From Sinorhizobium meliloti (GTDB lineage: Bacteria; Pseudomonadota; Alphaproteobacteria; Rhizobiales; Rhizobiaceae): a stretch of DNA of 32,000 nt. Below, in pieces: positions 1,740 through 18,109 of this stretch. The translations under genes were made by a program, and so were the position numbers. The notes below the pieces were generated by a model, which had not been told where the DNA came from, ran no database searches, and worked only from the letters and a program-made list of their open reading frames with translations. The DNA lies in the NCBI RefSeq assembly GCF_017876815.1, contig NZ_JAGIOS010000003.1, forward strand, positions 1,320,001 to 1,352,000, written 5' to 3'. Each line of letters starts with the position of its first letter. Within the stretch, counting starts at the first letter, position 1.

Positions 1740-2195
1740 TGAACCCTTCAAACTGGACCGATTTTGGTTAGAGTTTTCCGGTGATTTTTCCTGGGAAAGG
1801 GACGGAAGGCGATGAAGGCATGGCAATTTCGAACGCGCAGAAAGCGTTCATTCTGAAGCAGGGTGATGAAGGGTGACGGTTGCGGAGATCTGCCGCAAGG
1901 CGGGGATCAGCCAGGCGACCTACTTCAATTGGAAAAAGAAATATGCCGGTCTGTTGCCGCCGGAGATGGAAGCTGAAGCAGCTCGAGGACGAGAATGCGA
2001 GATTGAAGAAGATCGTTGCGGACCTGACGCTGGGCCGCGAGATGCTGCAGGATGTCATTCGGCGAAAGCTTTAAGGCCTGCTCGGAAGCGGGAGGTAGCA
2101 AGGGTATGTGCCGCGATTGGACGATCTCGATCCGGCCTGCATGCGGTGCACTCGACTTTGATCGGTCGACCTACCATCACACCTCCCGTCGTGCC
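1740..2195 (+). mobile_element. IS3-family insertion sequence remnant: left end, frameshifted orfA, stub of orfB, 3' part missing
   Basis: TG-initiated putative left end (TGAACCCTTCAAACTGG) lies 80 bp before the orfA ATG at 1820. The orfA product reads MAISNAQKAFILKQGDEG / VAEICRKAGISQATYFNWKKKYAGLLPPEM / KLKQLEDENARLKKIVADLTLGREMLQDVIRRKL across three frames (HTH plus leucine zipper typical of IS3 OrfA). A short OrfB-like stub follows (ACGALDFDRSTYHHTSRR), and homology then stops where the precursor repeat begins. Confidence 0.8.
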
Positions 2196-2321
2196 GTGAT
2201 CCAAGCGACTAAGTAGGATCCCTTAGTGGTTCACGCGAATTTCTTTAAGTCCGCAAAAATGGCACTTTGCGCGCACATCAGATCCGCCGAGGATTTGATG
2301 CCAACTGATGGAGAAAGTCTA

Positions 2322-2555
2322 ATGGGTTCCATTGATGATTTTCGCAGCAAGCTGGCTACCGACAGCGCCTTTGCAGCGGCAGTGAAGGCCTGCTCCACCC
2401 CGGATGCGATCGTGAATGCTGCCAAGGACGCCGGTATCGACCTCAGCCACAATGATCTGGCCAAGGCGATCGCGGCGGGAAGCCCGAATCTGACGGATGA
2501 AGATCTGGAGTCGGTATCCTCCGGCACCATCATGGCCGCAGCGCTGGTCAAGTAA
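2322..2555 (+). CDS. RiPP precursor peptide, Nif11-like leader, copy 1 (77 aa)
   Basis: MGSIDDFRSKLATDSAFAAAVKACSTPDAIVNAAKDAGIDLSHNDLAKAIAAGSPNLTDEDLESVSSG/TIMAAALVK. It matches the Nif11-type leader pattern (M..eqLkaF..kv..D..l...lka..tpe.vv..Ak.aGf.l...dl......LsdEeLE.VaGG). GGAG lies 8 nt upstream of the ATG. An alternative ATG 24 nt upstream (MPTDGESL..) follows GAGGA. Confidence 0.85.
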   Translation: MGSIDDFRSKLATDSAFAAAVKACSTPDAIVNAAKDAGIDLSHNDLAKAIAAGSPNLTDEDLESVSSGTIMAAALVK

Positions 2556-2570
2556 TCAGTGTGACGGTTC

Positions 2571-2602
2571 GGCCAGGTGCGTGCGCCAAGCCGCACCTGG
2601 CC
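2571..2602 (+). promoter_or_regulatory. Stem-loop 15 nt after the precursor stop (11-bp perfect stem, 10-nt loop), copy 1
   Basis: ggccaggtgcg-tgcgccaagc-cgcacctggcc. No U-tract follows, so an attenuator or mRNA-stabilising/processing hairpin is more likely than a strong intrinsic terminator. Confidence 0.5.
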
Positions 2603-2864
2603 TCTCCAGATGAACACGCTTGCTCTAATATCTTGGAGCCCGAGCCCTCCTGCTCCTGAACGAGCTTGTCGGCACTTCAAGCGCATGTCGAGAACATGAT
2701 TTTGACGAAGCCGTTCAGCGGTCCCCGACCTGCTCGGCGTGATCGAAGCGCCTAAGTGGTATCCCTTAGTGGTTCACCCGAATTTCTTTAAGTCCGCAAA
2801 AGTGGCACTTTGCGCTCACATCAGATCCGCCGAGGATTTGATGCCAACTGATGGAGAAAGTCTA

Positions 2865-3098
2865 ATGGGTTCCATTGATGATTTTCGCAGCAAGCTGGCT
2901 ACCGACAGCGCCTTTGCAGCGGCGGTGAAAGCCTGCTCCACCCCGGATGCGATCGTGAATGCTGCCAAGGACGCCGGTATCGACCTCAGCCACAACGATC
3001 TGGCCAAGGCGATCGCGGCAGGAAGCCCGAATCTGACGGATGAAGATCTGGAGTCGGTATCCTCCGGCACCATCATGGCCGCAGCGCTGGTCAAGTAA
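2865..3098 (+). CDS. RiPP precursor peptide, Nif11-like leader, copy 2 (77 aa, identical peptide)
   Basis: Same peptide as copy 1. It differs from copy 1 at four third-codon positions only (gca/gcg, aag/aaa, aat/aac, gcg/gca). Confidence 0.85.
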   Translation: MGSIDDFRSKLATDSAFAAAVKACSTPDAIVNAAKDAGIDLSHNDLAKAIAAGSPNLTDEDLESVSSGTIMAAALVK

Positions 3099-3113
3099 TC
3101 AGTGTGACGGTTC

Positions 3114-3145
3114 GGCCAGGTGCGTGCGCCAAGCCGCACCTGGCC
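3114..3145 (+). promoter_or_regulatory. Post-precursor stem-loop, copy 2
   Basis: Identical hairpin sequence to 2571..2602. Confidence 0.5.
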
Positions 3146-3406
3146 TCTCCAGATGAACACGCTTGCTCTAATATCTTGGAGCCCGAGCCCTCCTGCTCGT
3201 GAACGAGCTTGTCGGCACTTCAAGCGCATGTCGAGAACATGATTTTGACGAAGCCGTTCAGTGGTCCCGACCTGCTCGGCGTGATCGAAGCGCCTAAGTG
3301 GTATCCCTTAGTGGTTCACCCGAATTTCTTTAAGTCCGCAAAAATGGCACTTTGCGCTCACATCAGATCCGCCGAGGATTTGATGCCAACTGATGGAGAA
3401 AGTCTA

Positions 3407-3640
3407 ATGGGTTCCATTGATGATTTTCGCAGCAAGCTGGCTACCGACAGCGCCTTTGCAGCGGCGGTGAAAGCCTGCTCCACCCCGGATGCGATCGTGA
3501 ATGCTGCCAAGGACGCCGGTATCGACCTCAGCCACAACGATCTGGCCAAGGCGATCGCGGCAGGAAGCCCGAATCTGACGGATGAAGATCTGGAGTCGGT
3601 ATCCTCCGGCACCATCATGGCCGCAGCGCTGGTCAAGTAA
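3407..3640 (+). CDS. RiPP precursor peptide, Nif11-like leader, copy 3 (77 aa, identical peptide)
   Basis: Coding sequence identical to copy 2, with the same GGAG Shine-Dalgarno. Confidence 0.85.
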   Translation: MGSIDDFRSKLATDSAFAAAVKACSTPDAIVNAAKDAGIDLSHNDLAKAIAAGSPNLTDEDLESVSSGTIMAAALVK

Positions 3641-3655
3641 TCAGTGTGACGGTTC

Positions 3656-3687
3656 GGCCAGGTGCGTGCGCCAAGCCGCACCTGGCC
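3656..3687 (+). promoter_or_regulatory. Post-precursor stem-loop, copy 3, 24 nt before the first YcaO gene
   Basis: Identical hairpin sequence. It lies between the last precursor and the enzyme genes. Confidence 0.5.
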
Positions 3688-3710
3688 TCTCCAGATGAAG
3701 GGGCACCGAC

Positions 3711-4901
3711 GTGACCACTCCCGCCATCGGCACTAGAAATCGCAGGCAAGAATCAAGAATAATGACAGCATGTAACAGTTTGGGAACTTCGATTCGCAAT
3801 GTATCCGCAAGTCATACGCTTGCCGCGATCCAGCCACTTCTCGGACGTTACGACATCAGCGGATTTGCCGATCATTCGCCAAAGGGTGCAGAAACTCTGA
3901 AGTTTATAGAGGTCGTGCGCGGCAATCCGCGTTCGGGACATCTTAATCTCGGGAAAGGCTTTAGCTTCGAGACGGCACTTGCCTCGGGATACATGGAAGC
4001 CATCGAGATGAGTACGGTTGAAGGTCCGCCCGAGATCGCGTTGCATGCGCTTCCTCGATCCGCGCTTCTTTATACCGGGGGCGGAAAGCCGCCGGAGCCG
4101 GATGCGGCGCCCATGATCCGTGGCGTTGACCTGTTGTCGGCAGAGCCGGTTTACAGCCCTGTCTATGAACATTTCCTGTCGCCTGCCCCCTCGGCGCGGT
4201 CTGTTTCCGTCAACGGCTTGGCCAGCGGAAACACGGTCGAGGAAGCCAGTTTACATTGTCTCTATGAACTGATCGAACGCGACTTGACTGCCCAATCCCT
4301 CCGCGACCCGGTGCTGGTGCAGCAGCTTCTCCTCAGCGACATTCCAGCGCCCATTTCCAACGCCCTGACGGAACTGGAAGCGTTCGGACTACACGCCGAA
4401 TTCTATCTTCTGGGGCAGTTCCTCGGCGTCACTGTGCTTCAATGTGCGCTTGTAAAAACCGGATCCGGTGGCGAGGTCTATTATGGCTGGGGCGCTCATC
4501 ACTTCCGAGCCATTGCCATTTCTCGTGCCATGACAGAAGCCGTGCAGGCCTGGTGTACGCGCGAGGCATGCAGAGCGCAGACGCTTCCTCTTTCGCGCAT
4601 GCCTGGCGGGGTCATGGTCTCTGCCGAGGTTCTGAAGCTTTTGAGGGAACCTGTTACGAAGGGCGAACGTCAGTTGCGGCGGCGCTTCATCGCCTGCCCG
4701 AGCGTTGCCTATTCGCTCACCGATCAGGATGAGCAGGCACCGGCATCGCCAACGGCTGCCCTGAACCACCTTCTCTCGTCGGCGCGGGACGCCGGCATCC
4801 GTCATGTCTTTGCCTGGACGCTATCCCCGCCAGACCGTCCATTTGCCGTCGTCAAATGTGCCGTCCCCGGATTCGAAACTCCATTTGAGGTGGACGCGTG
4901 A
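3711..4901 (+). CDS. ycaO: YcaO-domain protein 1 (396 aa)
   Basis: YcaO signatures GKGFSFETALASGYMEAIEMSTVE and NGLASGNTVEEASLHCLYELIERD. GTG start is preceded by GAAGGGG (alternative ATG at 3762). Its stop overlaps the TfuA start. Confidence 0.85.
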   Translation: MTTPAIGTRNRRQESRIMTACNSLGTSIRNVSASHTLAAIQPLLGRYDISGFADHSPKGAETLKFIEVVRGNPRSGHLNLGKGFSFETALASGYMEAIEMSTVEGPPEIALHALPRSALLYTGGGKPPEPDAAPMIRGVDLLSAEPVYSPVYEHFLSPAPSARSVSVNGLASGNTVEEASLHCLYELIERDLTAQSLRDPVLVQQLLLSDIPAPISNALTELEAFGLHAEFYLLGQFLGVTVLQCALVKTGSGGEVYYGWGAHHFRAIAISRAMTEAVQAWCTREACRAQTLPLSRMPGGVMVSAEVLKLLREPVTKGERQLRRRFIACPSVAYSLTDQDEQAPASPTAALNHLLSSARDAGIRHVFAWTLSPPDRPFAVVKCAVPGFETPFEVDA

Positions 4902-6271
4902 TGGTTGTCGAGACCAACAATGAGATTGCCGTTTTTCTGGGCCCGTCCTGCTCGATTGAAGAAGCTAAAAGCATCCTGCCGGAGGCAGATTACTTTCCGC
5001 CCGCGGCTCGTGGCTCCATCTACGGTATTATCAATGATGGATACCGGATGATCGTCCTTCTCGACGGTCTGTTCTACGGACAATATTCTGTTTGGCATAA
5101 GGAACTCCTGTTCGCCCTGGATTGCGGCATTGAAGTAATCGGCGCAACGAGCATGGGTGCCCTGCGGGCGGCCGAACTGGACTGCGAGGGCGTGACCGGT
5201 GTCGGGCAGATCTACCAGTGGTTTCGTGACGGCGAAATCGATGGCGATGACGAAGTGGCTCTGCTCCACCAGAGTTCCGAGGGAGCTTACGCGCCTCTTT
5301 CCATCCCTCTCGCCAATTTGCGTTGGAATCTGCGCCTTGCCCGAAGAGAATGTATGATCGACGAGCAGCAGGAAGCGCGGATTCTGGACCATGCAAAGGC
5401 CCTGTGTTTCCAGGACCGAATGATGGAGGTCGTGCTTTCGCCGCTGGCAAAGGAACTGGATGTTTCTGGCTTGCAAAAATGGCTTGAAACGCATGGAGAG
5501 GATCTAAAAAAAAGGGATTGCTTAGAAGCGTTGCACTTTGCCGCCAGCCGGATCGCGACCCTTGGCCCCGCGCAGCCTCCCCGTCTTCGCGCCTATGAGA
5601 CGGTGCATACGCTGATCGGCATCGAGTATTTCAAGCACGAGCGGTTGAATGCCATCTGCGCAAAACGGCAAGGCAAGGCCATGCCGCTCTCGCAGTACAC
5701 CGAGCGAGTTGCCGTGGGAGATCCCTCCTATCGTAGCTATCTGCGCGCTCGCGCTTGCCAGCGCCTTATCAATGGCTGGGCTCGGGAACTTCACCTCGAA
5801 ATCACCCCGGCGCCCATTCTGCCCCAATGGTTACCCAATCGGTTTGACCTCGCTCACCGCAGGGCAACCGGCCTGACGCTAATCGACATTGCACGTGAGG
5901 GACGGGAAGCCGCCTTCACCGCAGGCGTCATCGGATCTCTCTCATCACCCGGCAGCCGCAGCCTCGTCTCCGATATTGACCGGCAACTGGCAGAGGCAGG
6001 TTTCTCGGCATGGGGCGCGGGAGCCGAAATCACACATTTGGATGGCCGCCTTGTTTATACGCTTCGTCGCCTGGGGCGCGAAAAGGGCATTTTGCCGGAC
6101 GAGAATGAAGATGCAGATACCGCCGAAGCGGCGCTCCACTACCTTGAATGGGTCTATCGCACCGGCTTGCAGCACTTCGGCTACACATTTGACGCGGCAA
6201 CCGAAATCCTCCTGGCACACCAATTTGCCGATCGACTTGACGACATTCTCGGATTGAGGGCTGCATCATGA
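4898..6271 (+). CDS. tfuA: TfuA-like protein with about 240-aa C-terminal extension (457 aa)
   Basis: The N-terminal 200 aa carry the TfuA pattern: IAVFLGPSCS..A..ILP.A.YFPPAARGSIY..., LLDGLFYGQYSVWHKELLFALDCGIEVIGATSMGALRAAEL, GVGQIYQWFRDGEIDGDDEVAL. GTG 4898 / ATG 4901 overlap the YcaO1 stop (4899-4901). ATGA overlap with YcaO2 at 6268-6271. Confidence 0.85.
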   Translation: MMVVETNNEIAVFLGPSCSIEEAKSILPEADYFPPAARGSIYGIINDGYRMIVLLDGLFYGQYSVWHKELLFALDCGIEVIGATSMGALRAAELDCEGVTGVGQIYQWFRDGEIDGDDEVALLHQSSEGAYAPLSIPLANLRWNLRLARRECMIDEQQEARILDHAKALCFQDRMMEVVLSPLAKELDVSGLQKWLETHGEDLKKRDCLEALHFAASRIATLGPAQPPRLRAYETVHTLIGIEYFKHERLNAICAKRQGKAMPLSQYTERVAVGDPSYRSYLRARACQRLINGWARELHLEITPAPILPQWLPNRFDLAHRRATGLTLIDIAREGREAAFTAGVIGSLSSPGSRSLVSDIDRQLAEAGFSAWGAGAEITHLDGRLVYTLRRLGREKGILPDENEDADTAEAALHYLEWVYRTGLQHFGYTFDAATEILLAHQFADRLDDILGLRAAS

Positions 6272-7485
6272 ATGCTGTTGAGGAATACTCACAAGGAACC
6301 CAGCGCACCTATAATCCGGAAGAGACATTGCGGAGAATTGCGCCAGCGATGCGCACCTGCGGCATCAGCCGCGTTCTCGACGTCACCCATCTCGATCGAA
6401 TCGGCATCCCCACCTACAATGCCGTGCGCCCCAATGGAATGATCTTGTCCGTGTCCAATGGGAAAGGGTGGACGAAGGCCGCCGCATCCGTATCCGCAAT
6501 CATGGAGTCGATCGAGGTCGAGCACGCCGAATATCCGGATACCTCGGCCTGGCATCTGGCTCAAAGCGCGAAGGTACTGCGAAACCGGGGATATTCGGTC
6601 GTCGATGCGCCAACGCTCATCAGCGAGTGCCTCTGGCCCTCCGATACCTATGGCGGTCTCTACTACTCAGATGATCTTCGCCTCGATTGGGTCGAGGGAC
6701 GCGAGATCATCGAGTCTCGGCCAGTCCTGCTGCCGGCCAGCACCATCTATGTACGCGCGCCTTACGTGCATTATTTCACCAGCAATGGATTGGCGAGCGG
6801 CAACACCTGGGAAGAAGCAACGCTTCACGGCATCTGCGAGTTGATCGAACGCGATTCCACGGCGCGTCTCCTCGGTCGTCCCGAGGGCATGACCACATCA
6901 CGGTTGCTTCGGATCGAGCCAAAATCGATGCCTGAACATCTCGGGCACTTCTCGGAGAAAGTGGCGCAGGCCGGAATAGAGCTTTTCATGTTCGCTCTTC
7001 CGAGTGCCATCGATATCCATACATTCTGGGCTGTGTTCCATTGCCCGGGCGAGCCCAGTTTCATGCTGGCCACCTCGGCGGGCTTCGGGTGCCATACATC
7101 GCCGCAGATCGCCGCGTCTCGCGCCCTGACCGAAGCTGCCCAGTCGCGCCTGACCTATATTCACGGGGCGCGGGAGGATCTGGGGATAGACCACGTCAAT
7201 CGTCAACTGACCTGCGCGGAGACAGAAGCGCGATTGGCCTTGCAGGCGCGGACATTTGCCAAGTTTCGGCAGATCCCGACCGTCACCTGGGATGAACTTC
7301 TGGCCGTGGCGCCACATCGTGCCCGCGGGCGTACGATCCCGGAAAGCCTCTCCATGGTGCTGAGAATGTTGAAGGAGGCCGGACACGGTCAGGTCTATGT
7401 CCACGATCTGACGAAGCGCGGTCTAGACCTGGCCGTGACGAAGGCCTTCGTGCCGGGGCTCAAGGTCAGCGCGAAGATGATTTGA
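6268..7485 (+). CDS. ycaO: YcaO-domain protein 2 (405 aa)
   Basis: Canonical YcaO N-terminus (GISRVLDVTHLDRIGIPTYNAVRPNG..SVSNGKGWTKAAASVSAIMESIEVEHAE) and NGLASGNTWEEATLHGICELIERD. No Pro-rich azoline-type C-terminal tail. Confidence 0.9.
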   Translation: MNAVEEYSQGTQRTYNPEETLRRIAPAMRTCGISRVLDVTHLDRIGIPTYNAVRPNGMILSVSNGKGWTKAAASVSAIMESIEVEHAEYPDTSAWHLAQSAKVLRNRGYSVVDAPTLISECLWPSDTYGGLYYSDDLRLDWVEGREIIESRPVLLPASTIYVRAPYVHYFTSNGLASGNTWEEATLHGICELIERDSTARLLGRPEGMTTSRLLRIEPKSMPEHLGHFSEKVAQAGIELFMFALPSAIDIHTFWAVFHCPGEPSFMLATSAGFGCHTSPQIAASRALTEAAQSRLTYIHGAREDLGIDHVNRQLTCAETEARLALQARTFAKFRQIPTVTWDELLAVAPHRARGRTIPESLSMVLRMLKEAGHGQVYVHDLTKRGLDLAVTKAFVPGLKVSAKMI

Positions 7486-7529: not shown

Positions 7530-8507
7530 ATGGAGACGACCCGCATGACCCTGGAGACAGCATCGCCCGTGCAACCGAATAGCCATCCCGGCACGCCCTT
7601 TGGTGAGATGTGGCGCGTAGCGGAACAGAACCCAGCTTATTCCCTTCTGGAAGTGCTCGATTCCATTGATCGAGACGTGTGGGACATGGAAATGCCGAGC
7701 GCCGATCAACGCGGCGTCTACGCCCGGGTGAACGGTCAGGCGGCTCTGCACCGGTTGCGGGAGGCGATGAACGGCATGGAGGCGGAGTATCCGCTCGATG
7801 CCCCGCCGCGACGCCGCCAATGGCTCGCCTCGGGTTGCTTCATGCGTGTCGAGGCGGTGCTTGATGCCTCACAGGTCCGTGAACTGGCGGGGCACTGCGA
7901 CCATCTGCTGCATACGCCCGGAATGCGCCCTGTCCGCCTGTTTGAAAACCCGCATATTCTCTCGGAAGAAGCCATAGTCGCCATAGCCCGAACTGCGCTT
8001 GCGGCTCTCCCACAGGCTTTGCCGTGCTCGGCGAGACCTGCTCTTCTGAAGAGACGAACGCTCTTGCGCCGGACTTTCCCACGGGCACAGCTTCCCGATG
8101 CGCACGGCAACGCCAATAATCAGTTTTGGCATCAGGACAGCAATCAGAAGTTCAACGATGCACCCATGATCACGCTTTGGATTCCGCTGGAGGATGGCGT
8201 TGGAAGAACCTGCCCCGGTATGGAAGTTATCGATGCGCCGGTTTCCTACTTCTCCATTTTGCATGGGGATAGTTCCCAAACCATCTGCCCAATTCTGTGC
8301 GACATGTTTCCCGGCACCCAAATTACGTCGCTGGAAGCAGCTGCTGGAGATTGCGTCATGTTCAACGGCCTTACATTCCACCAGACCGCGACAAATCCTG
8401 AGATGCGGCAGCATCGGGATGCGCTTTTGATCCGCATCATCGAGGCGGCAGATGCGGCCCATTTTGGTCCTGATGGGGCAGCTGATGGGATCGTTCCACT
8501 TGTCTAG
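7530..8507 (+). CDS. PhyH-family Fe(II)/2-oxoglutarate dioxygenase-like protein (325 aa)
   Basis: FWHQDS (HxD facial-triad motif typical of phytanoyl-CoA dioxygenase relatives) and distal LTFHQTA. An alternative ATG at 7545 has GGAG 9 nt upstream. Confidence 0.65.
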   Translation: METTRMTLETASPVQPNSHPGTPFGEMWRVAEQNPAYSLLEVLDSIDRDVWDMEMPSADQRGVYARVNGQAALHRLREAMNGMEAEYPLDAPPRRRQWLASGCFMRVEAVLDASQVRELAGHCDHLLHTPGMRPVRLFENPHILSEEAIVAIARTALAALPQALPCSARPALLKRRTLLRRTFPRAQLPDAHGNANNQFWHQDSNQKFNDAPMITLWIPLEDGVGRTCPGMEVIDAPVSYFSILHGDSSQTICPILCDMFPGTQITSLEAAAGDCVMFNGLTFHQTATNPEMRQHRDALLIRIIEAADAAHFGPDGAADGIVPLV

Positions 8508-9363
8508 CCTCGCCGTCCGCATCATAGGCGCCGGTGCAGTGGGAATGGCGTGCGGCTACCTGCTGCAACGGCGCGGGCATAAGCCACTGCATGTCAGTAT
8601 GCGTGGAGCGCCCTTGCGTGAACTGCCAGTTGCCATGCAAGGCACGGCACGCGGTCGATACCGCCCCGAAGCTGCGACACATGCTTCCCCGACGGATATA
8701 ACGCTCTTTGCTGTCGGGCCGCACGAAGTGGCCGGTGCATTGGCAACATGGGGTCAACCTGATGGGCGAAACCTTGTGTTCTGCGCTCATCCAGAACCGC
8801 AAGAAGGCGCCGTCATGGTCTTTCCGCAGATTTCGGCAGAGATTTGCCCAATGCGCGGACTTGGCATTGTGACGAGCGGCGCTGTGGAGATCTGCAACAA
8901 GTCGCAGCCTCATGCCCCTGGCCTTCTGCTGAAATTGGGCTTCAGGCTGGTACGCATGGTGACGCGGGCTCATTTTGCAGGTCGCGCCCTGCAAACGGCG
9001 GCATCTTATGTTGTGCTTCTCGCCCTCTCCCGTGGTGAGATGACCCGCGATCAGGTCTCACAGGTCTTGCTGATCGACATCATGCGGTTGCTGATGGAGG
9101 CCATGAGAGGGGCCGAAATTGCGGTCCAACTGCCGGATGGCTGTTCCCGCGCCTTCGCTGAACTGGCTTTACACATCTGCGCGCCCACTTCCGCCGAAAA
9201 TGATGTTCTCTCGCAAAACCTGGAAGCGCTGATGGCAACACCACAGCGCAAATTGCGCGGCCACCTTGCCCTCTACGAAGCGCCATGGCGGCGGCATGGT
9301 CCGGCCTCCGACGGGCTTGCGGCACGCCTGATCGATTTCGCGACATCTAAGCCCGTCCTCTAA
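8485..9363 (+). CDS. NAD(P)-binding Rossmann-fold oxidoreductase, possibly ketopantoate-reductase-like (about 292 aa)
   Basis: N-terminal VRIIGAGAVGMACGYLLQRRGH (GxGxxG) right after the start. The ORF opens at 8452 and overlaps the dioxygenase stop. ATGs at 8473/8485 or TTG near 8499 are possible starts. Family assignment beyond the dinucleotide fold is weak. Confidence 0.55.
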   Translation: MGSFHLSSLAVRIIGAGAVGMACGYLLQRRGHKPLHVSMRGAPLRELPVAMQGTARGRYRPEAATHASPTDITLFAVGPHEVAGALATWGQPDGRNLVFCAHPEPQEGAVMVFPQISAEICPMRGLGIVTSGAVEICNKSQPHAPGLLLKLGFRLVRMVTRAHFAGRALQTAASYVVLLALSRGEMTRDQVSQVLLIDIMRLLMEAMRGAEIAVQLPDGCSRAFAELALHICAPTSAENDVLSQNLEALMATPQRKLRGHLALYEAPWRRHGPASDGLAARLIDFATSKPVL

Positions 9364-9400
9364 TGAACTGTCCTCGCCCATGCGCAAGAAAGGAAATTCC

Positions 9401-9679
9401 ATGCAACAACTGACAGTGATCGTCCCACCCTCGATCCGGCCCTATGTCGGGGGTCAATCGCGCATCACAGTTGAGGCCCAAACCGTGCGCGAGGCGCTGG
9501 GCGCCATGTCCGCCAAATCCGCGCAATTGAAGGAGCATTTGTTCGACACGAAAGGCGAGATCAATCGCTTTGTTCGGATTTTTGTCAACGGACGGCCCGT
9601 GCCGCTCGGATCGCGCGGCGATGAAGCCGTCGAAAACGGCGCGGAGATAGCGGTCGTGTTGGCGCTGGCTGGAGGTTGA
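9401..9679 (+). CDS. ThiS/MoaD-family ubiquitin-like sulfur carrier protein (92 aa, C-terminal Gly-Gly)
   Basis: MQQLTVIVPPSIRPYVGG...VNGRPV....EAVENGAEIAVVLALAGG-stop. Size, beta-grasp-like pattern and terminal GG fit the family. AAGGAA lies 6 nt upstream of ATG 9401. Confidence 0.8.
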   Translation: MQQLTVIVPPSIRPYVGGQSRITVEAQTVREALGAMSAKSAQLKEHLFDTKGEINRFVRIFVNGRPVPLGSRGDEAVENGAEIAVVLALAGG

Positions 9680-9683
9680 GGGC

Positions 9684-10826
9684 ATGCTCAGGCAGGAACG
9701 TCTATCACGTCTACGGGAATCCTTGTCTCGGATCAGTGTCGAGGAGGCAAGACGGAAGCAAAAGGCTGGCGTCAAACTGATCGATATTCGTGACGCCGAA
9801 GAAACCGCCAAAGGCAGCCCTGTCGGCGCGGTACGCATCAGCCGATCCTTTCTGGAATTGCAGATTGAAAACGTGGCGCCGGATGCCGATACCGAGCTTA
9901 TGGTACTCTGCGCCAGCGATGCGCGCGCGCTGTTTGCCGCAGACGATCTCAACCGCCTCGGCTATTCTTCCGTTCATTGGGTCGATGGCGGATTTCAAGC
10001 CTGGGAGGCAGCCGGTCTTCCCGTTGAAAAACACCGACAGCTGAGCGCAGCGGAGAAGGAGCGATACGCGCGCCATTTGAGCATACCCGAAGTGGGGGCT
10101 GAGGGTCAGGCGCTGCTTCTGTCCAAGAAGGTGGCTCTGGTCGGTGCTGGAGGCCTTGGCTCTCCGCTGGCCTTTTATCTTGCGGCAGCAGGCATTGGAA
10201 CATTGGGGCTGATTGACAGCGACCGGCTCGAACGGTCGAATCTTCAGCGGCAAATCCTCCATACCGACGACCGGATCGGGGAGTTGAAGGTCAGTTCGGC
10301 CGCAAAATCTCTTCAGGCGTTCAATCCGGACGTAGCTCTCAATCTCCATGAGATACGGTTGAACGAGAACAATGCACTGGAAATACTGGCCGATTACGAT
10401 CTGGTGATCGACGGCAGCGACAATCTGGCGACCCGCTACGTCGTGAGCGACGCCAGCACGCTGCTTAATATTCCCATGATTTATGGCGCGATCTTCCGTT
10501 TCGAGGGACACGTTTCCGCATTTTGGCCCAATGGCCCGTCCGGTGGCCCGTGCTATCGCTGTCTCTTTCCTGAAAAGCTGCCCGCATCGCTCACTCCATC
10601 CTGCTCCGAGGTCGGTGTGCTTGGCGTGTTACCGGGCGTCATCGGGACGATCATGGCAACGGAAGCGATCAAGATCCTGCTCGGAATCGGCGATCCGCTG
10701 ATTGGGCGTTTGCTGACCTACAATGCCCTCGATTGCTCTTTCCACGACCTCGAGGTCCCCGCGAACCCCCATTGCGAGCAGTGCCAATCCAACCGGGATC
10801 TGCCACGCATGCGCGCCGGGTTGTGA
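9684..10826 (+). CDS. Rhodanese-ThiF/MoeB fusion (E1-like adenylyltransferase/sulfurtransferase, 380 aa)
   Basis: Residues about 1-115 form a rhodanese domain with an active-site loop Cys (MVLCASDARALFAADDLNRLGYSSVHWVDGGFQAWEAAG). The rest is canonical MoeB/ThiF: RYARHLSIPEVGAEGQ, VGAGGLGSPLAFYLAAAGIG, DSDRLERSNLQRQILH, DGSDNLATRY, CYRC...CEQC zinc motifs. GGAGG lies 9 nt upstream. Confidence 0.9.
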   Translation: MLRQERLSRLRESLSRISVEEARRKQKAGVKLIDIRDAEETAKGSPVGAVRISRSFLELQIENVAPDADTELMVLCASDARALFAADDLNRLGYSSVHWVDGGFQAWEAAGLPVEKHRQLSAAEKERYARHLSIPEVGAEGQALLLSKKVALVGAGGLGSPLAFYLAAAGIGTLGLIDSDRLERSNLQRQILHTDDRIGELKVSSAAKSLQAFNPDVALNLHEIRLNENNALEILADYDLVIDGSDNLATRYVVSDASTLLNIPMIYGAIFRFEGHVSAFWPNGPSGGPCYRCLFPEKLPASLTPSCSEVGVLGVLPGVIGTIMATEAIKILLGIGDPLIGRLLTYNALDCSFHDLEVPANPHCEQCQSNRDLPRMRAGL

Positions 10827-10846
10827 GCGTGGGCGGCCCTCTTACG

Positions 10847-11467
10847 ATGCTGCAAGCCTTCCGGTTTGGTGAAAGCGACCGGGACCATGTGTCCCGATTG
10901 CTGCATTGGGCGGACTTTCCCAACAGTGCACGTATTGTGGACCTCGGCGCTGGCAGCGGCGGGGTCGCGGCCCATATGGCGGCTTTGCGTCCGGATTTAC
11001 GTTTCTGTCTGGTCGATCTGGATGAAACGAAACTGGCGGCCAGTTCATTCGAAAAACACATTGCAAATATAACGCAAGTCCCAGAACCCGATGGTGCATT
11101 CGACGCGGCGATTTGCTGTTACGCAATGGGTTATGCGCCTTCGGATGCGCTATGGTCGGAGATTTCACGCCTTCTGCGACCGGGTGGCACTGTTTTTATC
11201 GTGGATATGGTGCCCAAGGATGCCACGATCCCGAAGCTTAGCCTGTTCGGCTATGAGATACGGAGCCGTGGGATGGTCGAGGAAGCGGCGCAATCTGTTG
11301 GTTTGATACCGGATGTCTATATCGAGCCGTATGATTCCGGCGATTGGGGCCGGTCCGTCTTTTCGGATGCTTTCGATGTATTCTTCGGCGATCTGCGGCC
11401 CGCCATCTGGTGCTGGCGCGCGCCCGAAACCAAGACCGTCGCTCACCCCTCGACCACCCAAGCGTGA
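10847..11467 (+). CDS. Class I SAM-dependent methyltransferase (about 206 aa)
   Basis: Motif I IVDLGAGSGGVAAHMA, post-I LVDLDE, motif II FDAAICCYAMGY, motif III LLRPGGTVFIVD. An alternative GTG at 10823 forms a GTGA overlap with the E1 stop. Confidence 0.8.
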   Translation: MLQAFRFGESDRDHVSRLLHWADFPNSARIVDLGAGSGGVAAHMAALRPDLRFCLVDLDETKLAASSFEKHIANITQVPEPDGAFDAAICCYAMGYAPSDALWSEISRLLRPGGTVFIVDMVPKDATIPKLSLFGYEIRSRGMVEEAAQSVGLIPDVYIEPYDSGDWGRSVFSDAFDVFFGDLRPAIWCWRAPETKTVAHPSTTQA

Positions 11468-11532
11468 TCGATCGACGGCATCCTAAGGTTACTGCGGCAG
11501 GGGCATAGCAGAGCGCGCATTCTGTCTGAGCG

Positions 11533-12066
11533 TTATACCAGGGCGATATTCGCCCACAGGTTCATCGCCTCGGCGAGAATTTCGCGATGATGGCTTGAGG
11601 AGCACGCCGGCACGCCGCAAGACAACATTTCCCGGTGCAGCCGTCGCTCAGTTCGAAAGCAATGACGGGGTGCCTGACCGACTGTGCCGACGTTCCCAAC
11701 TCGCCGCCGCAGCGAGGATTTGGCGCTCGCGCCACGTCTGGAACGAGGGACGACCATCGCCATTTCGCCCTCGTCGCGCACCATGTTCCGATAGTCCATT
11801 AACTCTTGCTCACACTCAAGCCACATTGCCACCACCGGCCCGGCCACGCTGTACTCTCCGGCTCTTGGCAGTACTTGACGTAGTTCTCGTGCCAAAGCGG
11901 CAGTATATCCACCGGGTCGACATCGACACCGTAGCGCTCGGCAATGGTACGGGAGTTGTCGACGTTCTCCAAAAGCGTGGCCAGGAACGCCTTGCACCGA
12001 GCCGGCGCTCCGTGAAGCGCTTGACATGCGACAGCGTGCGAAGCTGTCCAGACTTGCGTCGATCAA
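11533..12066 (-). pseudogene. Decayed gene of unknown family (protein-like stretches spread over three reverse frames)
   Basis: Reverse frames give YRNIFDRRKSGQLRTLSHVKRFTE, then FLATLLENVDNSRTIAERYGVDVDPVDILPLWHENYVKYCQE, then WLECEQELMDYRNMVRDEGE ... HHREILAEAMNLWANIALV-stop. No single frame is intact or recognisable. Confidence 0.3.
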
Positions 12067-12128
12067 AGATGTTTCGGTAGCATTCGGTAGCCGCGCTGGT
12101 ACATAACCGGGCCTCTTACTTGCAGGTT

Positions 12129-12317
12129 TCAGATTATGGGGGTGGATGTGCGTTTAAGGGTCACAGTGCCGGCCACGACTAGAACGACTTCGATGGCGAC
12201 AGTCGCAATTACGGTGGTGCCGTTCGATTGATTTTGGCCGGAGATCTCCCCTTCAACAAATGCGTCCGAGCGTGCTGTGCAATTGTTGGCGTCATCGATC
12301 GTGAAAATGGTAGCCAC
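12129..12317 (-). CDS. Candidate small ORF (62 aa) downstream of the LanM-like gene
   Basis: GTG start 2-3 nt after AGGAAG. Product MATIFTIDDANNCTARSDAFVEGEISGQNQSNGTTVIATVAIEVVLVVAGTVTLKRTSTPII. Moderate GC3 bias. An AT-rich stretch lies upstream. Not recognisable, and may be a gene fragment. Confidence 0.25.
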   Translation of the reverse strand: MATIFTIDDANNCTARSDAFVEGEISGQNQSNGTTVIATVAIEVVLVVAGTVTLKRTSTPII

Positions 12318-12468: not shown

Positions 12469-15390
12469 TCAATGGCCTATGGTCGGAAGAAGACCAGCAG
12501 AGATGATAAGGTCGCGAGCCGCGTTGGACCGCTCGTCCCGGATCTGTGCGAACCCTATACCAGCAACGCCAGTGAACAGACCGAGATGGCGTGGATCGCA
12601 GTACTTCTGGGTGTCTGAAGAGCATGGCAAATTGCCAGTTGCCTGTGCTGATGACGCGCAGGCCATCTCGACGCCGGCGGTGCCGCTGTGGATACCGGCT
12701 CCTTGGTTAGGCAGGGACGCCAATCCGATCACCCCGCGCCGGATTGCAGCATCCGCATTCGCTCGCCATTCTTGGTCATGACGCAGGCACAGGCATGTGA
12801 TGATGTGACCTGCAATGCCGCAACTCCATTCAGAACCGGCGCGAGGGCCGAAGCGCCAGAAGGCTTCCGAGCTGTGTTGAAGCAGGGATTGAACCGAAGC
12901 GCGAATGTTTGCGTTCCCTGATACATGCGCAAACTGACTGAGCGCAGCCAATACACCAAAAGCACCTTGCGCAAAGCCAGACGGTGCCGTTTCCGCCTCT
13001 CTGCTGGTCCAGTCGGCCAGACGGCAGGCAACCATCTCGGCCTGAGTGTCCGCTGTGTCGGAATTCACGAGTAGGAGCGGACCCAGCAAGCCCGCATATC
13101 CGGACCAGACATCCCAAGGCTTATCTTCGAGCAAGGCCCGATCGAGAACTGCAACCAACTGCTGCATGGCGTGCGGGATTCGATCGGCCATTATGCTAAG
13201 CCTCTGCAGTGCCGACAATGCCAGAAGCTGTCCGCCGCTGCCACGCAACCCGATGGGCAGGTCTCGCCACCACCGCAGGCGCTCAGCCGGTGTTCCGCTC
13301 TCCGCCAGCCTCAGAAGCGGCTCAGCCAAATTTTCTGCAATATGGCAGGCCTCTGGTCTTCCGGTCGCTGCAAGATAGACGGCAAGACCAAGTGTGCCGC
13401 TCACGAGCGACATTCCAAGCGGCTGGTAGCAGAACCGGATACCATCCGGCGCGAGATCGAATCCGATCCAGCCATCTGATCGACGCCTGATTTCCGATAA
13501 AAGCTGGTCTGTCGGATTGGTGATCGGTTGGAGGCTGTTCTCGCAACTCCGCCCGTGCTGCGCGAGCCGCAATGCCTTGGCCGATGCCAAAGCGTCTATT
13601 GTTTCGATCTCACGCTCGATCCTTTCGCAGGACAATGCCTCTATTCGCTCCCGGCTTGCCGCCAAGCCACTCGTCTCGAAATAGTCATCGATTCGTTGAT
13701 CGCCGGTCAGGTTCAGGGCCGTTTGCGAGACCGTGTGCGTGAATACGGGAATATCCAGTTGGCGCATTTGCAGCTTTTCAGAGGCGCATAGGCTTGAAAC
13801 GTCCTGACGATCTGCAAGCGGCGCAAAAAGGCGCTCCAGCGGATAAAGAACGTCTGCTTGGGACTGCTCGCTTCGCAATGCTTCCGCCGTCAACTGACGG
13901 CGTGCAAGCGCCGCATAGATCCGTGTCGCGCGAATGACAGCGCGCCCCTTGCAGCCGTTGAAGGCCTGCAACAGGCCATCTTCCCCCAGCCAAACGGGTT
14001 TGTTGGCGATGATGGACCTGCACTGCGCATGGAATCCGGCCATGAAGAGCTTACGATGACGGAAAAATGGATTCTTCCTGTCTGACGTTACGGGCAATGA
14101 TTGCGTGCGAACGAGCTCCCCGATCATGACGGTGCGGGCCATGTTATCCGTATTGATGGAGTGCCAGCCGGGAATTTGCCTTGGCCATTCCTGAGGCTCG
14201 ATGCCGAAAGCGCTCGTATCGACGGCATCGCGTGCGAGGCCCAGTAAGGTCCAGGCTGGAAATAGCTCGGTTCGTGCAACGGTGGTGTCGAACCAAGACC
14301 ATGCCGTCTGGGCCGCACCCAGGCTGTCCCCCGGCCGTGGACGGCGAATTGCTGGCTTCTCGAAGGGCGTCAAAAGCGTTTCGGCGTCTATAACATATAG
14401 ATGGCTGTGATGCGCCACGAGGTTTTCGTGGTGACCATCCGTGTAACCTAAAACATGCAGGAGAGCGGCCAGTCTGCCGGCACTGCGATAGAATGCCTGC
14501 AGTACATCTTCGTTGTCGCAGGGCGCGCCCTCAACAAATTCCATATAGCCATAGTCTTCTGCGCACCAGATTTTCAGCCCGGGAAGAGGTGAAAGACCGA
14601 TGCTAGCGCGCGGATCCGCCAGCAAATTCTGGAACGCCGCCTCGAGGGCGAGGTTACGGGGCTTGTAGACGAGTTTTGTCTGCCGCCCCTGCCAAGTGAA
14701 TTCCAGCAGCACGACGCTCCGTCCACCCTTATGGGTATCGCCGACAGCAAATTGCATGCCGGAAAGCGCCGCGTCTTCAGGAAGGCGGAAGTTTTGAGCG
14801 ATTGCTGTCCGATCCGCCTCGAGGCGGGCTAAAAGCTCGCGAAGATTTCTGATCCAGACTGCAATTGTGAAAGGAATCAAGCGTCGAAGGACCGGAAAGC
14901 GATCCAGCAGTTCCGCCAGATGTGTCTGCCGCAGTTCGTCTGTCAAGCGATCATAGATCTCGCATTTCGCGGCGCTCGGGTCTTTCTCCGGGGCTAATGC
15001 GGCGATGACGGACGCGCCAGCGCCACGCCGCTCTTCAAGTATTTGCTGAAGTGCATCTGCCCCCAACGCGCAAAGGCGCTCTGTCAGCGCTACAATCAGT
15101 TGCCCGATGACGGTTGGCGCCAACGCGGCTTGCGGCAGAAGCCCCATTGCGACTTCGGCCAGAGGAAACCACAGGTGAACAAAAGGCAGCTCTTTCGCAA
15201 GGCAAGGCGTTCGCGAAATGTCTTGCCTCGCCGCGAAGCATAAACCCGAGAGAAACGCATCTCCGGAACCGGCTTTCTCACGAGGCGCGCCTGTATTGCC
15301 CACCGGATCGGCAAGCTCGTCCACCAATGGCCAAAGGGCTACTATCGCCGTATTGTCTCGTGCCTCTTTTCGGATGTTTGCGTCGATCAT
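12469..15390 (-). CDS. lanM: LanM-like class II lanthipeptide synthetase (973 aa) with degenerate LanC-type cyclase motifs
   Basis: Dehydratase (DUF4135-type) signatures GDTHKGGRSVVLLEFTWQGRQTKLVYKPRNL and YGYMEFV...FYRSAGRLAALLHVLGYTDGHHENLVAHHSHLYVIDAETLL. The C-terminal repeats are LanC-like, but GFAQGAFG replaces G-x-A-H-G, EWSCGIAG replaces W-C-x-G, and GIHSGTAG (12673-12696) replaces C-H-G. Start moved to ATG 15390 (GGGAGG 9 nt upstream) rather than the track's 15441. Confidence 0.85.
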   Translation of the reverse strand: MIDANIRKEARDNTAIVALWPLVDELADPVGNTGAPREKAGSGDAFLSGLCFAARQDISRTPCLAKELPFVHLWFPLAEVAMGLLPQAALAPTVIGQLIVALTERLCALGADALQQILEERRGAGASVIAALAPEKDPSAAKCEIYDRLTDELRQTHLAELLDRFPVLRRLIPFTIAVWIRNLRELLARLEADRTAIAQNFRLPEDAALSGMQFAVGDTHKGGRSVVLLEFTWQGRQTKLVYKPRNLALEAAFQNLLADPRASIGLSPLPGLKIWCAEDYGYMEFVEGAPCDNEDVLQAFYRSAGRLAALLHVLGYTDGHHENLVAHHSHLYVIDAETLLTPFEKPAIRRPRPGDSLGAAQTAWSWFDTTVARTELFPAWTLLGLARDAVDTSAFGIEPQEWPRQIPGWHSINTDNMARTVMIGELVRTQSLPVTSDRKNPFFRHRKLFMAGFHAQCRSIIANKPVWLGEDGLLQAFNGCKGRAVIRATRIYAALARRQLTAEALRSEQSQADVLYPLERLFAPLADRQDVSSLCASEKLQMRQLDIPVFTHTVSQTALNLTGDQRIDDYFETSGLAASRERIEALSCERIEREIETIDALASAKALRLAQHGRSCENSLQPITNPTDQLLSEIRRRSDGWIGFDLAPDGIRFCYQPLGMSLVSGTLGLAVYLAATGRPEACHIAENLAEPLLRLAESGTPAERLRWWRDLPIGLRGSGGQLLALSALQRLSIMADRIPHAMQQLVAVLDRALLEDKPWDVWSGYAGLLGPLLLVNSDTADTQAEMVACRLADWTSREAETAPSGFAQGAFGVLAALSQFAHVSGNANIRASVQSLLQHSSEAFWRFGPRAGSEWSCGIAGHIITCLCLRHDQEWRANADAAIRRGVIGLASLPNQGAGIHSGTAGVEMACASSAQATGNLPCSSDTQKYCDPRHLGLFTGVAGIGFAQIRDERSNAARDLIISAGLLPTIGH

Positions 15391-15455
15391 GGCGATGCCT
15401 CCCGCACAAATCTCCCTTTCGACCCGGCAACATTTCCGCATTGACAGCTATGGAT

Positions 15456-15473
15456 ATTGCAACATGGTGCAAT
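15456..15473. promoter_or_regulatory. Palindrome ATTGCA-N6-TGCAAT in the divergent lanM-like/protease intergenic region
   Basis: Perfect 6-bp arms, 10 bp downstream of a TTGACA hexamer (15441-15446). Candidate operator, but short enough to occur by chance. Confidence 0.2.
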
Positions 15474-15494
15474 CTGAGGAATGTGGAGACATAT

Positions 15495-17700: not shown

Positions 17701-18109
17701 ATGCTTTATATCTCCCAAGTCCTGTATCTCGGGACGCGGGTCTCCAGATTTGGCCTCGAGGCGCGATAGAGGGTCGCCAGCGCGATATAGCCGCTTACCT
17801 GCCGGCGCAAAGCGACATCAGCGAGCACGAGCTGCTTCAGAAGCTCATCAGACGACTTCAGGCCGCCAGGCGAAGAATGCGCTTGGCAACGATTGGCGCG
17901 GCTGGTGGCCCGACGAAGATCCCGACGATGGTGGCGATGATACCGCCTGATCGAAGGTGCCGGGTTGGCCGCTGCTGTTCCGCACGGCCCCGGCTGGCAG
18001 TCGCCAGTTGCAATCCCCCACTCAGCCGCTTCTGGTTTACTCTACCAGCCCTCTTTTGACTGAAATCGAGCCTTCGACGAGCAGTTAGGGACCAACCCAG
18101 AGAGGCTGC

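Follow-up and report, generated by a model that had tools for sequence, protein, structure and literature searches.

Organization of the locus

In a 32,000-nucleotide stretch of Sinorhizobium meliloti DNA (contig NZ_JAGIOS010000003.1; this whole stretch is called the window below), two ycaO genes were found on either side of a single tfuA gene within a gene cluster for a peptide that is made on ribosomes and modified after translation (RiPP). The extra YcaO, designated YcaO1, and its relation to TfuA and to the other YcaO, YcaO2, are the subject of this study. All three open reading frames (ORFs) lie on the forward strand: YcaO1 at 3711..4901 (396 amino acids (aa); Pfam YcaO, E 4e-38, 132 bits), TfuA at 4898-6271 (457 aa; Pfam TfuA, E 9e-40, covering aa 56-174 only) and YcaO2 at 6268-7485 (405 aa; Pfam YcaO, E 1e-65, 222 bits). 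The two YcaO proteins share 25% identity (BLASTP E 2e-16). The ORFs, the Pfam domains and this identity bear out the original prediction, made from the sequence of the window, of two divergent intact YcaOs around one TfuA, and the glutamate motifs quoted there (MEAIE in YcaO1, MESIE in YcaO2 and ELIERD in both) were read in both proteins.

The overlaps that had been taken as a sign of translational coupling were exactly as claimed. The ycaO1/tfuA junction is TGATG at 4899-4903, a 1-nt overlap with GAGGTGGA approximately 7 nt upstream, and the tfuA/ycaO2 junction is ATGA at 6268-6271, a 4-nt overlap preceded by GAGG; this Shine-Dalgarno-like GAGG is located 7-8 nt before both junctions. The ATG at 3762 is most likely the true start of YcaO1 (379 aa), since the homologues start at the corresponding position, as does the Rhizobium annotation. 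For TfuA, the most likely true start is the ATG at 4901 (456 aa), in agreement with cluster P0110.

YcaO1 is predicted to be catalytically intact and distinct from YcaO2

To compare catalytic positions, 95 YcaOs were aligned with E. coli YcaO. The equivalents of E. coli S71, E75, E78, N187, E199, E202, R203 and R286, which we take to be the ATP/Mg-binding residues of that enzyme after Dunbar et al. 2014, were kept in both YcaO1 and YcaO2, in 8/8 wider YcaO1-clade members and in 81/81 other TfuA-type YcaOs. The claim that both proteins keep their nucleotide- and Mg-binding residues thus withstood proper alignment, with all eight positions present. The catalytic motifs were also invariant in 26/26 core-clade YcaO1 sequences, which are 40-86% identical. 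In the protein collection searched, approximately 27 close relatives of YcaO1 (40-99% identical) were found, followed by a gap down to E 1e-26.

The ratio of nonsynonymous to synonymous substitution rates (dN/dS), determined between the Sinorhizobium and Rhizobium orthologues, was 0.38 for YcaO1, 0.15 for YcaO2, 0.37 for TfuA and 0.39 for ThiF. Over the same genomes, the mean distance was 0.80 for YcaO1 versus 0.44 for YcaO2. YcaO1 is therefore predicted to be ATP-competent and under purifying selection; with the ATP/Mg positions intact on alignment and a dN/dS of 0.38, it is not the degenerate copy that had been named as an outcome speaking against the original prediction.

The placement of YcaO1 was examined in neighbor-joining trees, the one with azoline-type references being built on Poisson distances; the sequences compared are only 17-25% identical. 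YcaO1 scored under the NCBIfam TIGR00702 (generic YcaO) cut-off. Together with distant YcaO1-like proteins (28-31% identical; loci L008, L083 and L084), it formed one clade with bootstrap 96, and the bootstrap for the monophyly of YcaO1-type proteins was 99 once five azoline-type references, taken from plasmids, had been added. The split separating YcaO1-type plus TfuA-type proteins from the five azoline-type references plus E. coli YcaO was recovered with bootstrap 96/100. The trees did not separate a position of the YcaO1-type proteins as sister to the TfuA-type radiation from one nested in it (bootstrap 37). The proposed placement against the TfuA-associated, azoline-forming and amidine-forming clades was thus obtained for the first two of them, YcaO1 falling apart from the azoline references (bootstrap 96) and with the TfuA-type proteins. 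By these trees, YcaO1 appears to be an offshoot of the thioamide-type lineage and not an azoline-type enzyme.

Among 86 TfuA-adjacent YcaOs, 55 alignment columns were at least 90% conserved. The YcaO1 clade lacked 19 of these 55, and YcaO2 carried the majority residue at all 19 columns missing from YcaO1. The lost columns are concentrated in the N-terminal G..R....T.LD..G.P stretch and in R...I.G.R.D just after the third ATP motif. Motifs 1-3, described as specific to TfuA-associated YcaOs, are located in the same regions (Malit et al., PMC8120280). The IHG.R.D motif was also found in the M. jannaschii YcaO by pairwise alignment. Judged by their sequences, YcaO1 and YcaO2 are clearly not redundant paralogues.

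A PhyH-like oxygenase accompanies YcaO1

Downstream of ycaO2, the window carries a gene for a PhyH-like Fe(II)/2-oxoglutarate (2OG) oxygenase (7530..8507, forward strand), with a weak Pfam PhyH match and intact WHQD...FNGLTFH...RDALLIR motifs. It overlaps a gene for a Rossmann protein of the PanE/ApbA type (8452..9363, forward strand), which has a GxGxxG motif and weak NAD_binding_8/ApbA matches. Such a PhyH-like gene was present in every YcaO1-type locus with enough flanking sequence and in 0/74 genome and 0/66 metagenome loci holding only ordinary TfuA-type YcaOs. It directly adjoined the YcaO1-type gene, often overlapping it, in eight loci (L008, L083, L084, L089, L098, L107, L108 and L112), and in L006 the two genes were divergent neighbors. 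Because the homologues keep the HxD...H facial triad and the 2OG-binding Arg (WHQD, FNGLTFH and RDALLIR), they are regarded as genuine Fe/2OG oxygenases. The constant companion of YcaO1 is therefore the PhyH-like oxygenase and not TfuA.

The YcaO1-type/PhyH-like pair is usually found alongside a fast-evolving, PanE/ApbA-like Rossmann protein of 280-320 aa. The similarity between the Rossmann protein of the window and the 280-310 aa proteins beside YcaO1-like genes is weak and transitive. In R. leguminosarum ATCC 14479 (L176), the annotation of the Rossmann gene at 11208-12275 omits the N-terminal GxGxxG region and joins the gene in frame with thiS into a single 355-aa 'MoaD/ThiS family protein'; the variant may be decaying or fused, or the annotation may be in error.

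The cleanest case of these genes standing alone is locus L107 (ERZ887942 NODE-1483, 16 kb). It encodes a TolC-like protein, a C39 ATP-binding cassette (C39-ABC) exporter, a second ABC protein, YcaO1-like, PhyH-like and Rossmann proteins and three Nif11 precursors; no TfuA, second YcaO, ThiS or ThiF was found within its 16 kb. TfuA, a second YcaO, ThiS and ThiF were likewise absent within the available sequence of L008 (13 kb), L088 and L089.

Precursors were recognized at several YcaO1-type loci. Their C-termini, ...MPAIGLAILIK, ...GAIAFGVMVK and ...TILSVVVWTVYVK (...TVYVK), have in common with the ...MAAALIK/VK end of the present family a hydrophobic-[IV]-K tail. Precursors of YcaO1-type loci thus keep the Lys at their C-terminus, the amine of which is a candidate nucleophile. 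No precursor could be identified beside the YcaO1-like genes in L008, L083 and L089, and that of L085 is cut by the contig end.

Recurrence of the cluster in other lineages

The proteins of the window were mapped onto loci fetched from genomes and metagenomes. A set of ten genes, encoding the LanM-like enzyme, Nif11 precursor, YcaO1, long TfuA, YcaO2, PhyH-like oxygenase, Rossmann protein, ThiS, rhodanese-ThiF and methyltransferase, recurred in Mycetohabitans rhizoxinica, Mycetohabitans sp. B46, S. medicae, a Pseudomonadota metagenome-assembled genome (MAG), Allosphingosinicella and a Terriglobia MAG, as well as in R. leguminosarum and metagenome contigs L090, L096, L098 and L104. Inside the fetched flanks, no thiS/thiF match was found in L007 and no methyltransferase in L006.

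The order of the genes differed by lineage, and the sole constant adjacency was tfuA followed by ycaO2. It was seen in every related locus with both genes in view, tfuA being directly upstream of ycaO2 in the window and in L001, L004-L007, L083, L084, L090, L096, L098, L104 and L108. In Sinorhizobium and Rhizobium, ycaO1 adjoins tfuA; in L083 and L108, which are YcaO1-like loci, the two genes are also neighbors, in divergent orientation. Elsewhere ycaO1 is located beside the precursor gene (Mycetohabitans), after ycaO2 (Terriglobia), after thiF (L090 and L103/104) or before phyH (L098). Because the placement of ycaO1 varies and the tfuA-ycaO2 pair alone is constant, the sandwich is a local Rhizobiaceae layout. 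The original prediction was thus right about the sandwich and the coupling at this locus; the order itself is a feature of Sinorhizobium and Rhizobium.

YcaO1-type loci never contained more than one tfuA. Two or three ordinary TfuA-type ycaO genes were found in loci L041, L065 and L074 (Legionellales and Kofleriaceae); L041 and L065 have two tfuA and two ycaO genes each, and L074 has one tfuA by ORF scan. These loci represent a different way to build thioamide clusters with multiple YcaOs. A further ORF of the window, at 17502-18059 (185 aa), was considered as a third YcaO and rejected: its Pfam match (E 0.015, 15 bits) lacks the YcaO motifs and is probably due to chance.

YcaO2, TfuA and the TfuA extension

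The best NCBIfam match of YcaO2 was the YcaO of McrA-glycine thioamidation (214 bits), and a phmmer search related it to the M. jannaschii YcaO 6PE3 with E 5e-31. By sequence, YcaO2 appears to be a typical TfuA-partnered thioamidation enzyme.

The TfuA catalytic domain (aa 1-215; 4901..5545, forward strand) matched 6XP8 in phmmer with E 2e-38 and NCBIfam ThioGly_TfuA_rel with 188 bits. In the AlphaFold2 (AF2) model of the protein, which has a predicted local distance difference test score (pLDDT) of 90.7, residues 1 to approximately 219 were superimposed by Foldseek on M. acetivorans TfuA 6XP8 (template modeling score 0.91, root-mean-square deviation 1.8 A). The rest of the chain is additional, in agreement with the approximately 240 extra C-terminal residues that had been noticed. 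This extension (5546..6271, forward strand) is helical with one beta-hairpin. Of the proposed structure prediction, a confident fold was obtained when the extension was modeled alone (AF2 pLDDT 89); no match to a solved structure came with it, either by Foldseek against the PDB (best E 0.38) or, at the sequence level, in Pfam. The possibility that the extension is a recognizable leader-binding RiPP recognition element (RRE) was rejected since the PDB fold search gave no RRE, winged-helix or other fold.

Exhaustive HMMER searching of 1.84 billion representative proteins gave 10 matches to the extension. The best of these were P0113 and P0132, which are long TfuAs of the cluster family; the remainder were weak matches or short proteins. 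A length of 400-520 aa is seen in most of the 120 nearest TfuAs, and long TfuAs occur in single-YcaO clusters too, which rules out length as a hallmark of clusters with two YcaOs. The last approximately 50 residues of the extension (W..G..FGY.FD..E..LA.Q) align weakly with one TfuA from a single-YcaO cluster. The C-terminal domain is thus predicted to be structured and is peculiar to this family of clusters; it may plausibly serve to dock ThiS, the leader or a YcaO.

Precursor genes

Upstream of ycaO1, three tandem copies of a gene encoding a 77-aa precursor with a Nif11 leader were found by direct-repeat search and by reading of the sequence. Copy 1 is located at 2322..2555, copy 2 at 2865..3098 and copy 3 at 3407..3640, all on the forward strand. 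Each encodes the identical peptide ending in ...ESVSSGTIMAAALVK; the NCBIfam leader_Nif11 score (E 1.8e-19) was taken on copy 3. The repeated unit, spanning 2195-3700 in all, consists of the precursor gene, its upstream region and a downstream hairpin; the units are 543/542 bp apart and 96-97% identical in DNA.

The hairpin is a GC-rich stem-loop (3656..3687, forward strand for copy 3) directly 3' of the precursor stop codon, and the same sequence is repeated behind copies 1 and 2. RNA folding of 3636-3712 gave -33.9 kcal/mol (z -2.15). The stem-loop is without a U-tract and was not called by the terminator scan; it is possibly an attenuator or an mRNA-stabilizing element. The sites given by the terminator and promoter scans were no more numerous than in shuffled sequence. 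The number of precursor genes differs among close relatives: three in the window, five matches in S. medicae USDA1037 (L003), one of them split across two reading frames, and one match in R. leguminosarum ATCC 14479 (L176).

The core is the 9-residue T-x-M-A-A-A-L-(I/V)-K, almost invariant across phyla. The precursors of five lineages end in ...VGTPMAAALIK; the rhizobia have TIMAAALVK, and L104 has TVMAAALIK. The core T(P/I/V)MAAAL(I/V)K thus contains one Thr, invariant as the first core position, and no Cys, no Ser and no His. The leader diverges to approximately 50% identity while the core stays near-constant (window 3407-3640 compared with L001, L004, L006, L007, L090, L104 and L176). It is unusual for a RiPP core to be so well conserved between Acidobacteriota and the symbionts of plants and fungi (rhizobia and Mycetohabitans); this hints at a conserved target or signaling role and may bear on symbiosis.

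Other genes of the cluster and its setting

Behind the Rossmann gene, a complete sulfur relay is encoded on the forward strand. The ThiS/MoaD-like sulfur carrier (9380..9679; Pfam ThiS) ends in ...LALAGG, with the C-terminal Gly-Gly. It is followed by a rhodanese-ThiF/MoeB adenylyltransferase-sulfurtransferase (9684..10826), which matched NCBIfam MoeB PRK08762 with 558 bits, above the equivalog cut-off, and contains the full set of motifs (rhodanese loop CASDAR, GAGGLGS and two CxxC). This complete MoeB-type enzyme with its rhodanese domain is the only ThiF homologue, and no E1-like domain is attached to either YcaO. No nitroreductase or SagB match and no RRE-type leader-binding protein was recognized among the cluster ORFs in Pfam and NCBIfam searches.

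A class I S-adenosylmethionine (SAM)-dependent methyltransferase (10733..11467, forward strand; Pfam Methyltransf_11/25), the start codon of which is uncertain, is kept in related loci. So is the LanM-like enzyme encoded on the reverse strand at 12469..15441, in which the dehydratase domain is intact (Pfam DUF4135, 296 bits) and the LanC-like domain degenerate (LANC_like, 33 bits). In its LanC-like domain, the GxAHG His was absent in 5/5 orthologues compared, and the place of the CHG zinc motif was taken by IHSG in the window, GCG in L090 and the ProcM-like CCG in three orthologues; GxAHG and CHG presumably hold the LanC-type catalytic His and Zn ligands. Because the catalytic His is absent, the Zn ligands are degenerate in the window and the core is without Cys, the LanM-like enzyme is probably a dehydratase only, acting on the invariant Thr. 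An ORF of the papain family (Peptidase_C1) at 15114-16682 adjoins lanM and overlaps its 5' end on the opposite strand. Related clusters from other genera did not show it; its product may act locally as a leader protease or have no connection with the cluster.

The segment is 100% identical to the 1.6-Mb megaplasmid of S. meliloti RU11/001. It is present on 25 PLSDB plasmids (14 from Sinorhizobium and 11 from Rhizobium), where the genes carry generic names only. Transposase genes or fragments at 1873-2075, 22857-23444 and 28125-28790 (IS3-type HTH_Tnp_1, DDE_3 and DDE_Tnp_1) bracket the region, and three integrase/recombinase genes precede the cluster in R. leguminosarum. These flanking insertion sequence remnants and integrases are consistent with horizontal mobility of the cluster. 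The segment 29000-31300 has a GC content of 66%, compared with approximately 57%, and contains a gene for a cytochrome P450 (29020-30222) as well as a fragment of another P450-like gene (30697-31254); it is probably of separate origin.

Proposed roles of the two YcaO proteins

Taken together, the data somewhat favor a reading in which this conserved, horizontally mobile RiPP cluster would hold two separate backbone-activating modules, the YcaO1 step being independent of TfuA. YcaO1 would act separately from TfuA because it is co-inherited with the PhyH-like oxygenase, has lost TfuA-type positions and occurs in loci without TfuA.

The first module, for thioamidation, would consist of rhodanese-ThiF, ThiS-GG, TfuA and YcaO2. 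ThiF would adenylate ThiS and, with the rhodanese domain, convert it to the thiocarboxylate (ThiS-COSH), which TfuA would hydrolyze to sulfide. YcaO2 would use ATP to phosphorylate the backbone amide oxygen, and sulfide would then displace the phosphate to give the thioamide. The components, motifs and folds of this module were found here, and its mechanism is taken over from characterized archaeal and thioamitide systems; ThiS homologues with TfuA have been described as a sulfide-delivery route (PMC13063428).

The second module would consist of YcaO1, the PhyH-like Fe/2OG oxygenase and the Rossmann protein and would carry out a second, nonredundant step, namely another ATP-dependent amide activation without TfuA. 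Its likely target would be the hydrophobic-[IV]-K C-terminal tail, modified together with a side-chain hydroxylation. What YcaO1 catalyzes we infer throughout from sequence, and three options may be considered: cyclodehydration onto an enzymatically installed beta-hydroxyl to give an oxazoline, formation of an amidine from the Lys amine, or TfuA-independent thioamidation. The conversion of phenylserine to phenyloxazole is a precedent for the logic of hydroxylating first and cyclodehydrating afterward (PMC11575548). The LanM-like enzyme, as a dehydratase only, and the methyltransferase would provide further tailoring.

It is possible, and put forward here more tentatively, that YcaO1, the PhyH-like oxygenase and the Rossmann protein form an unrecognized portable three-gene tailoring module for RiPPs, with an undescribed YcaO reaction that would require neither TfuA nor an E1-like partner. 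Options for the reaction would then include heterocycle formation on a hydroxylated non-Ser/Thr residue and formation of a Lys-derived amidine at the hydrophobic-[IV]-K tail. In the present cluster, the module would be joined to classical thioamidation on a peptide that is conserved across phyla.

Several points weigh against separate action of YcaO1. The trees were built by neighbor joining on very divergent sequences and contained no amidine-forming references (BotCD, KlpD and AmiD). The loci described as lacking TfuA are contigs of 7-16 kb, beyond which TfuA could lie, and the link through the C-terminal [IV]K rests on three locus families. Furthermore, YcaO1 groups with the TfuA-type YcaOs, so its ancestry points to thioamidation, and its ATP motifs share the Met/His/Ala preferences of these proteins. 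Finally, ycaO1 is translationally coupled to thiF in L090 and L103/L104 and stands beside thiS-phyH in L084; a YcaO1 so coupled could use the sulfur relay.

The main alternative is a division of labor in which YcaO1 would be a second thioamide former drawing on the shared ThiS/ThiF relay, with TfuA supplied in trans or unneeded. It would modify another amide than YcaO2 does, or the peptide at another stage of maturation, for instance once hydroxylated. This alternative keeps weight because of the ancestry of YcaO1, which falls with the YcaOs of TfuA clusters (bootstrap 96), and because of the occasional coupling to thiF or thiS, the ycaO1 gene overlapping thiF in L090 and L103 and adjoining thiS-phyH in L084. 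The residue preferences kept by YcaO1 are those given for TfuA-associated YcaOs (PMC8120280), and E. coli YcaO thioamidates uL16 without TfuA, next to hydroxy-Arg81 (PMC13063428). However, YcaO1 lacks 19/55 near-invariant TfuA-adjacent positions, including IHG.R.D, and YcaO1-type genes form modules in loci that show no TfuA, ThiS or ThiF within the available sequence. In the ordinary multi-YcaO loci L041 and L065, the extra YcaO comes with an extra tfuA, whereas YcaO1-type loci never have more than one. In addition, one YcaO-TfuA pair installs several thioamides in thioamitides, so that reaching more sites would not by itself call for a second enzyme. Division of labor is therefore regarded as rather unlikely. 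Of the two ideas in the original prediction, that the YcaOs divide the amide positions between them or that one performs a different chemistry, the latter fits the evidence better.

The absence of a conserved protease, C39 or other, from the core-family loci and the invariant Thr at the first core position raise another possibility. YcaO1 might be an ATP-dependent, MusD-type YcaO cleaving the leader or backbone, or it might form a methyloxazoline at the leader-core Thr that subsequently hydrolyzes; in either case it would replace a leader protease. MusD (7U58), which we take to be a peptidase-type YcaO, was among the solved YcaO structures matched by YcaO2, but the search with YcaO1 gave no MusD match. 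Moreover, L107 and L089 have a C39-ABC exporter besides the YcaO1-like gene, the conserved Thr is more readily assigned to LanM, and the strict linkage to the oxygenase and the Rossmann protein would be left unexplained. A cleaving YcaO1 is thus improbable.

It is likewise improbable that YcaO1 is a noncatalytic partner that serves as a scaffold, binds the leader or regulates YcaO2/TfuA. Its evolution is indeed faster than that of YcaO2 (distance 0.80 versus 0.44; dN/dS 0.38 versus 0.15), and the cluster has no recognized RRE-type leader-binding protein. However, invariance of the ATP/Mg positions across the clade down to approximately 28% identity would be hard to explain without catalysis, and YcaO1-type genes occur with no YcaO2 or TfuA in view. 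Redundancy of the two YcaOs, or decay of YcaO1 as a duplicate, might be suggested by their common operon and superfamily and their position on both sides of one tfuA, but it appears effectively refuted by the sequence data, namely the 25% identity, the separate conserved clade formed by each YcaO in every lineage with the cluster, and the purifying selection and intact motifs of YcaO1.

Novelty and significance

The view that thioamidating systems use one YcaO with one TfuA holds as a rule; clusters with extra ycaO genes had already been reported. A survey of 2021 noted that some TfuA clusters come 'with multiple uncharacterized ycaO genes' (PMC8120280, Fig. 5E and S27) and did not analyze the function or phylogeny of the extra YcaO; the family drawn there may be the present one. 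The bare observation of several YcaOs in a cluster is therefore not new. Literature searches with the core peptide strings and for the cluster in Sinorhizobium/Mycetohabitans found no characterization of the present family; a Synechococcus YcaO paper was set aside as a precedent since it concerns cyanobactin-like YcaOs.

What is new here is the delimitation, by sequence comparison, of the extra YcaO as a distinct subfamily that is predicted to be catalytically intact. Also new are its strict linkage to an Fe/2OG oxygenase and a Rossmann protein, its lost TfuA-adjacent positions, its occurrence without TfuA and the shared C-terminal [IV]K. Three or four backbone chemistries of YcaOs are known (azoline, amidine, thioamide and peptidase), and to our knowledge every new partner of a YcaO has until now brought new chemistry to light. 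The combination of intact catalytic residues, lost positions and oxygenase linkage makes YcaO1 a concrete and cheap target for enzymology, with a 77-residue precursor, a 9-residue core and YcaO2/TfuA as an internal control in the same cluster. The presence of the whole sulfur relay in the cluster would suit in vitro reconstitution of physiological thioamidation.

Comparison with known systems

The features by which azoline-forming YcaOs of linear azole-containing peptides (LAP/TOMM), cyanobactins and thiopeptides are recognized, namely a core rich in Cys, Ser or Thr nucleophiles, a fused or adjacent E1-like or Ocin-ThiF-like leader-binding partner, a SagB/ThcOx FMN dehydrogenase and grouping with azoline-type YcaOs, were all lacking here. 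The thioamidated thiopeptides (thiopeptin, saalfelduracin and Sch 18640) resemble the present cluster in having two YcaOs of different chemistry; in them, one YcaO forms azolines and the other, partnered by TfuA, forms thioamides (PMC8120280). The extra YcaO of the present cluster, in contrast, is not of the azoline type according to the split with bootstrap 96, and the cluster has no E1-like/Ocin-ThiF partner, SagB dehydrogenase, Cys/Ser-rich core or pyridine synthase.

Curacozole, YM-216391 and mechercharmycin are alike in logic, since a non-Ser/Thr residue is hydroxylated and then cyclodehydrated to an oxazole (PMC11575548). They differ in using a predicted P450 beta-hydroxylase and cyanobactin-like azoline cyclodehydratases, and the same logic is put forward for the present family as a proposal. 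E. coli YcaO is similar in that the thioamide of uL16 is formed without TfuA beside a residue that a 2OG oxygenase hydroxylates (PMC13063428); however, its substrate is a folded protein, the oxygenase RoxA is not PhyH-type, and E. coli YcaO was the most distant sequence in the trees.

With the prochlorosin-type class II lanthipeptides (ProcM), the cluster shares the Nif11 leader, a LanM-like enzyme and multiple precursor copies, and some LanM orthologues of the family carry the ProcM-like CCG motif. Unlike in prochlorosins, the core is without Cys, the LanC-like catalytic His is missing, the Zn ligands of the window are degenerate, and the precursor copies are identical instead of hypervariable.

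Also among the closest are the thioamidation systems of McrA thioglycine, the thioamitides (such as thioviridamide and thioholgamide) and the thiovarsolins, which the present cluster resembles in its adjacent, translationally coupled YcaO2-TfuA pair, the 6XP8 fold of its TfuA, and the ThiS-GG carrier and ThiF/rhodanese activator encoded alongside. A PhyH-type oxygenase, a SAM methyltransferase and a dehydration enzyme are shared with the thioamitides as well. However, since the core is without Cys and His, neither aminovinylcysteine (AviCys) nor hydroxy-dimethyl-His can be formed, dehydration is assigned to a LanM-like enzyme, and the complete sulfur relay is located inside the cluster. Of the marks of TfuA-dependent thioamidation, intact YcaO residues, tfuA beside ycaO2, the TfuA fold and ThiS-GG with its activator were found, whereas YcaO1 shows neither constant adjacency to tfuA nor the near-invariant TfuA-adjacent positions. 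Compared with these systems, the present cluster is set apart by a second YcaO of a separate subfamily and by a Nif11-type leader.

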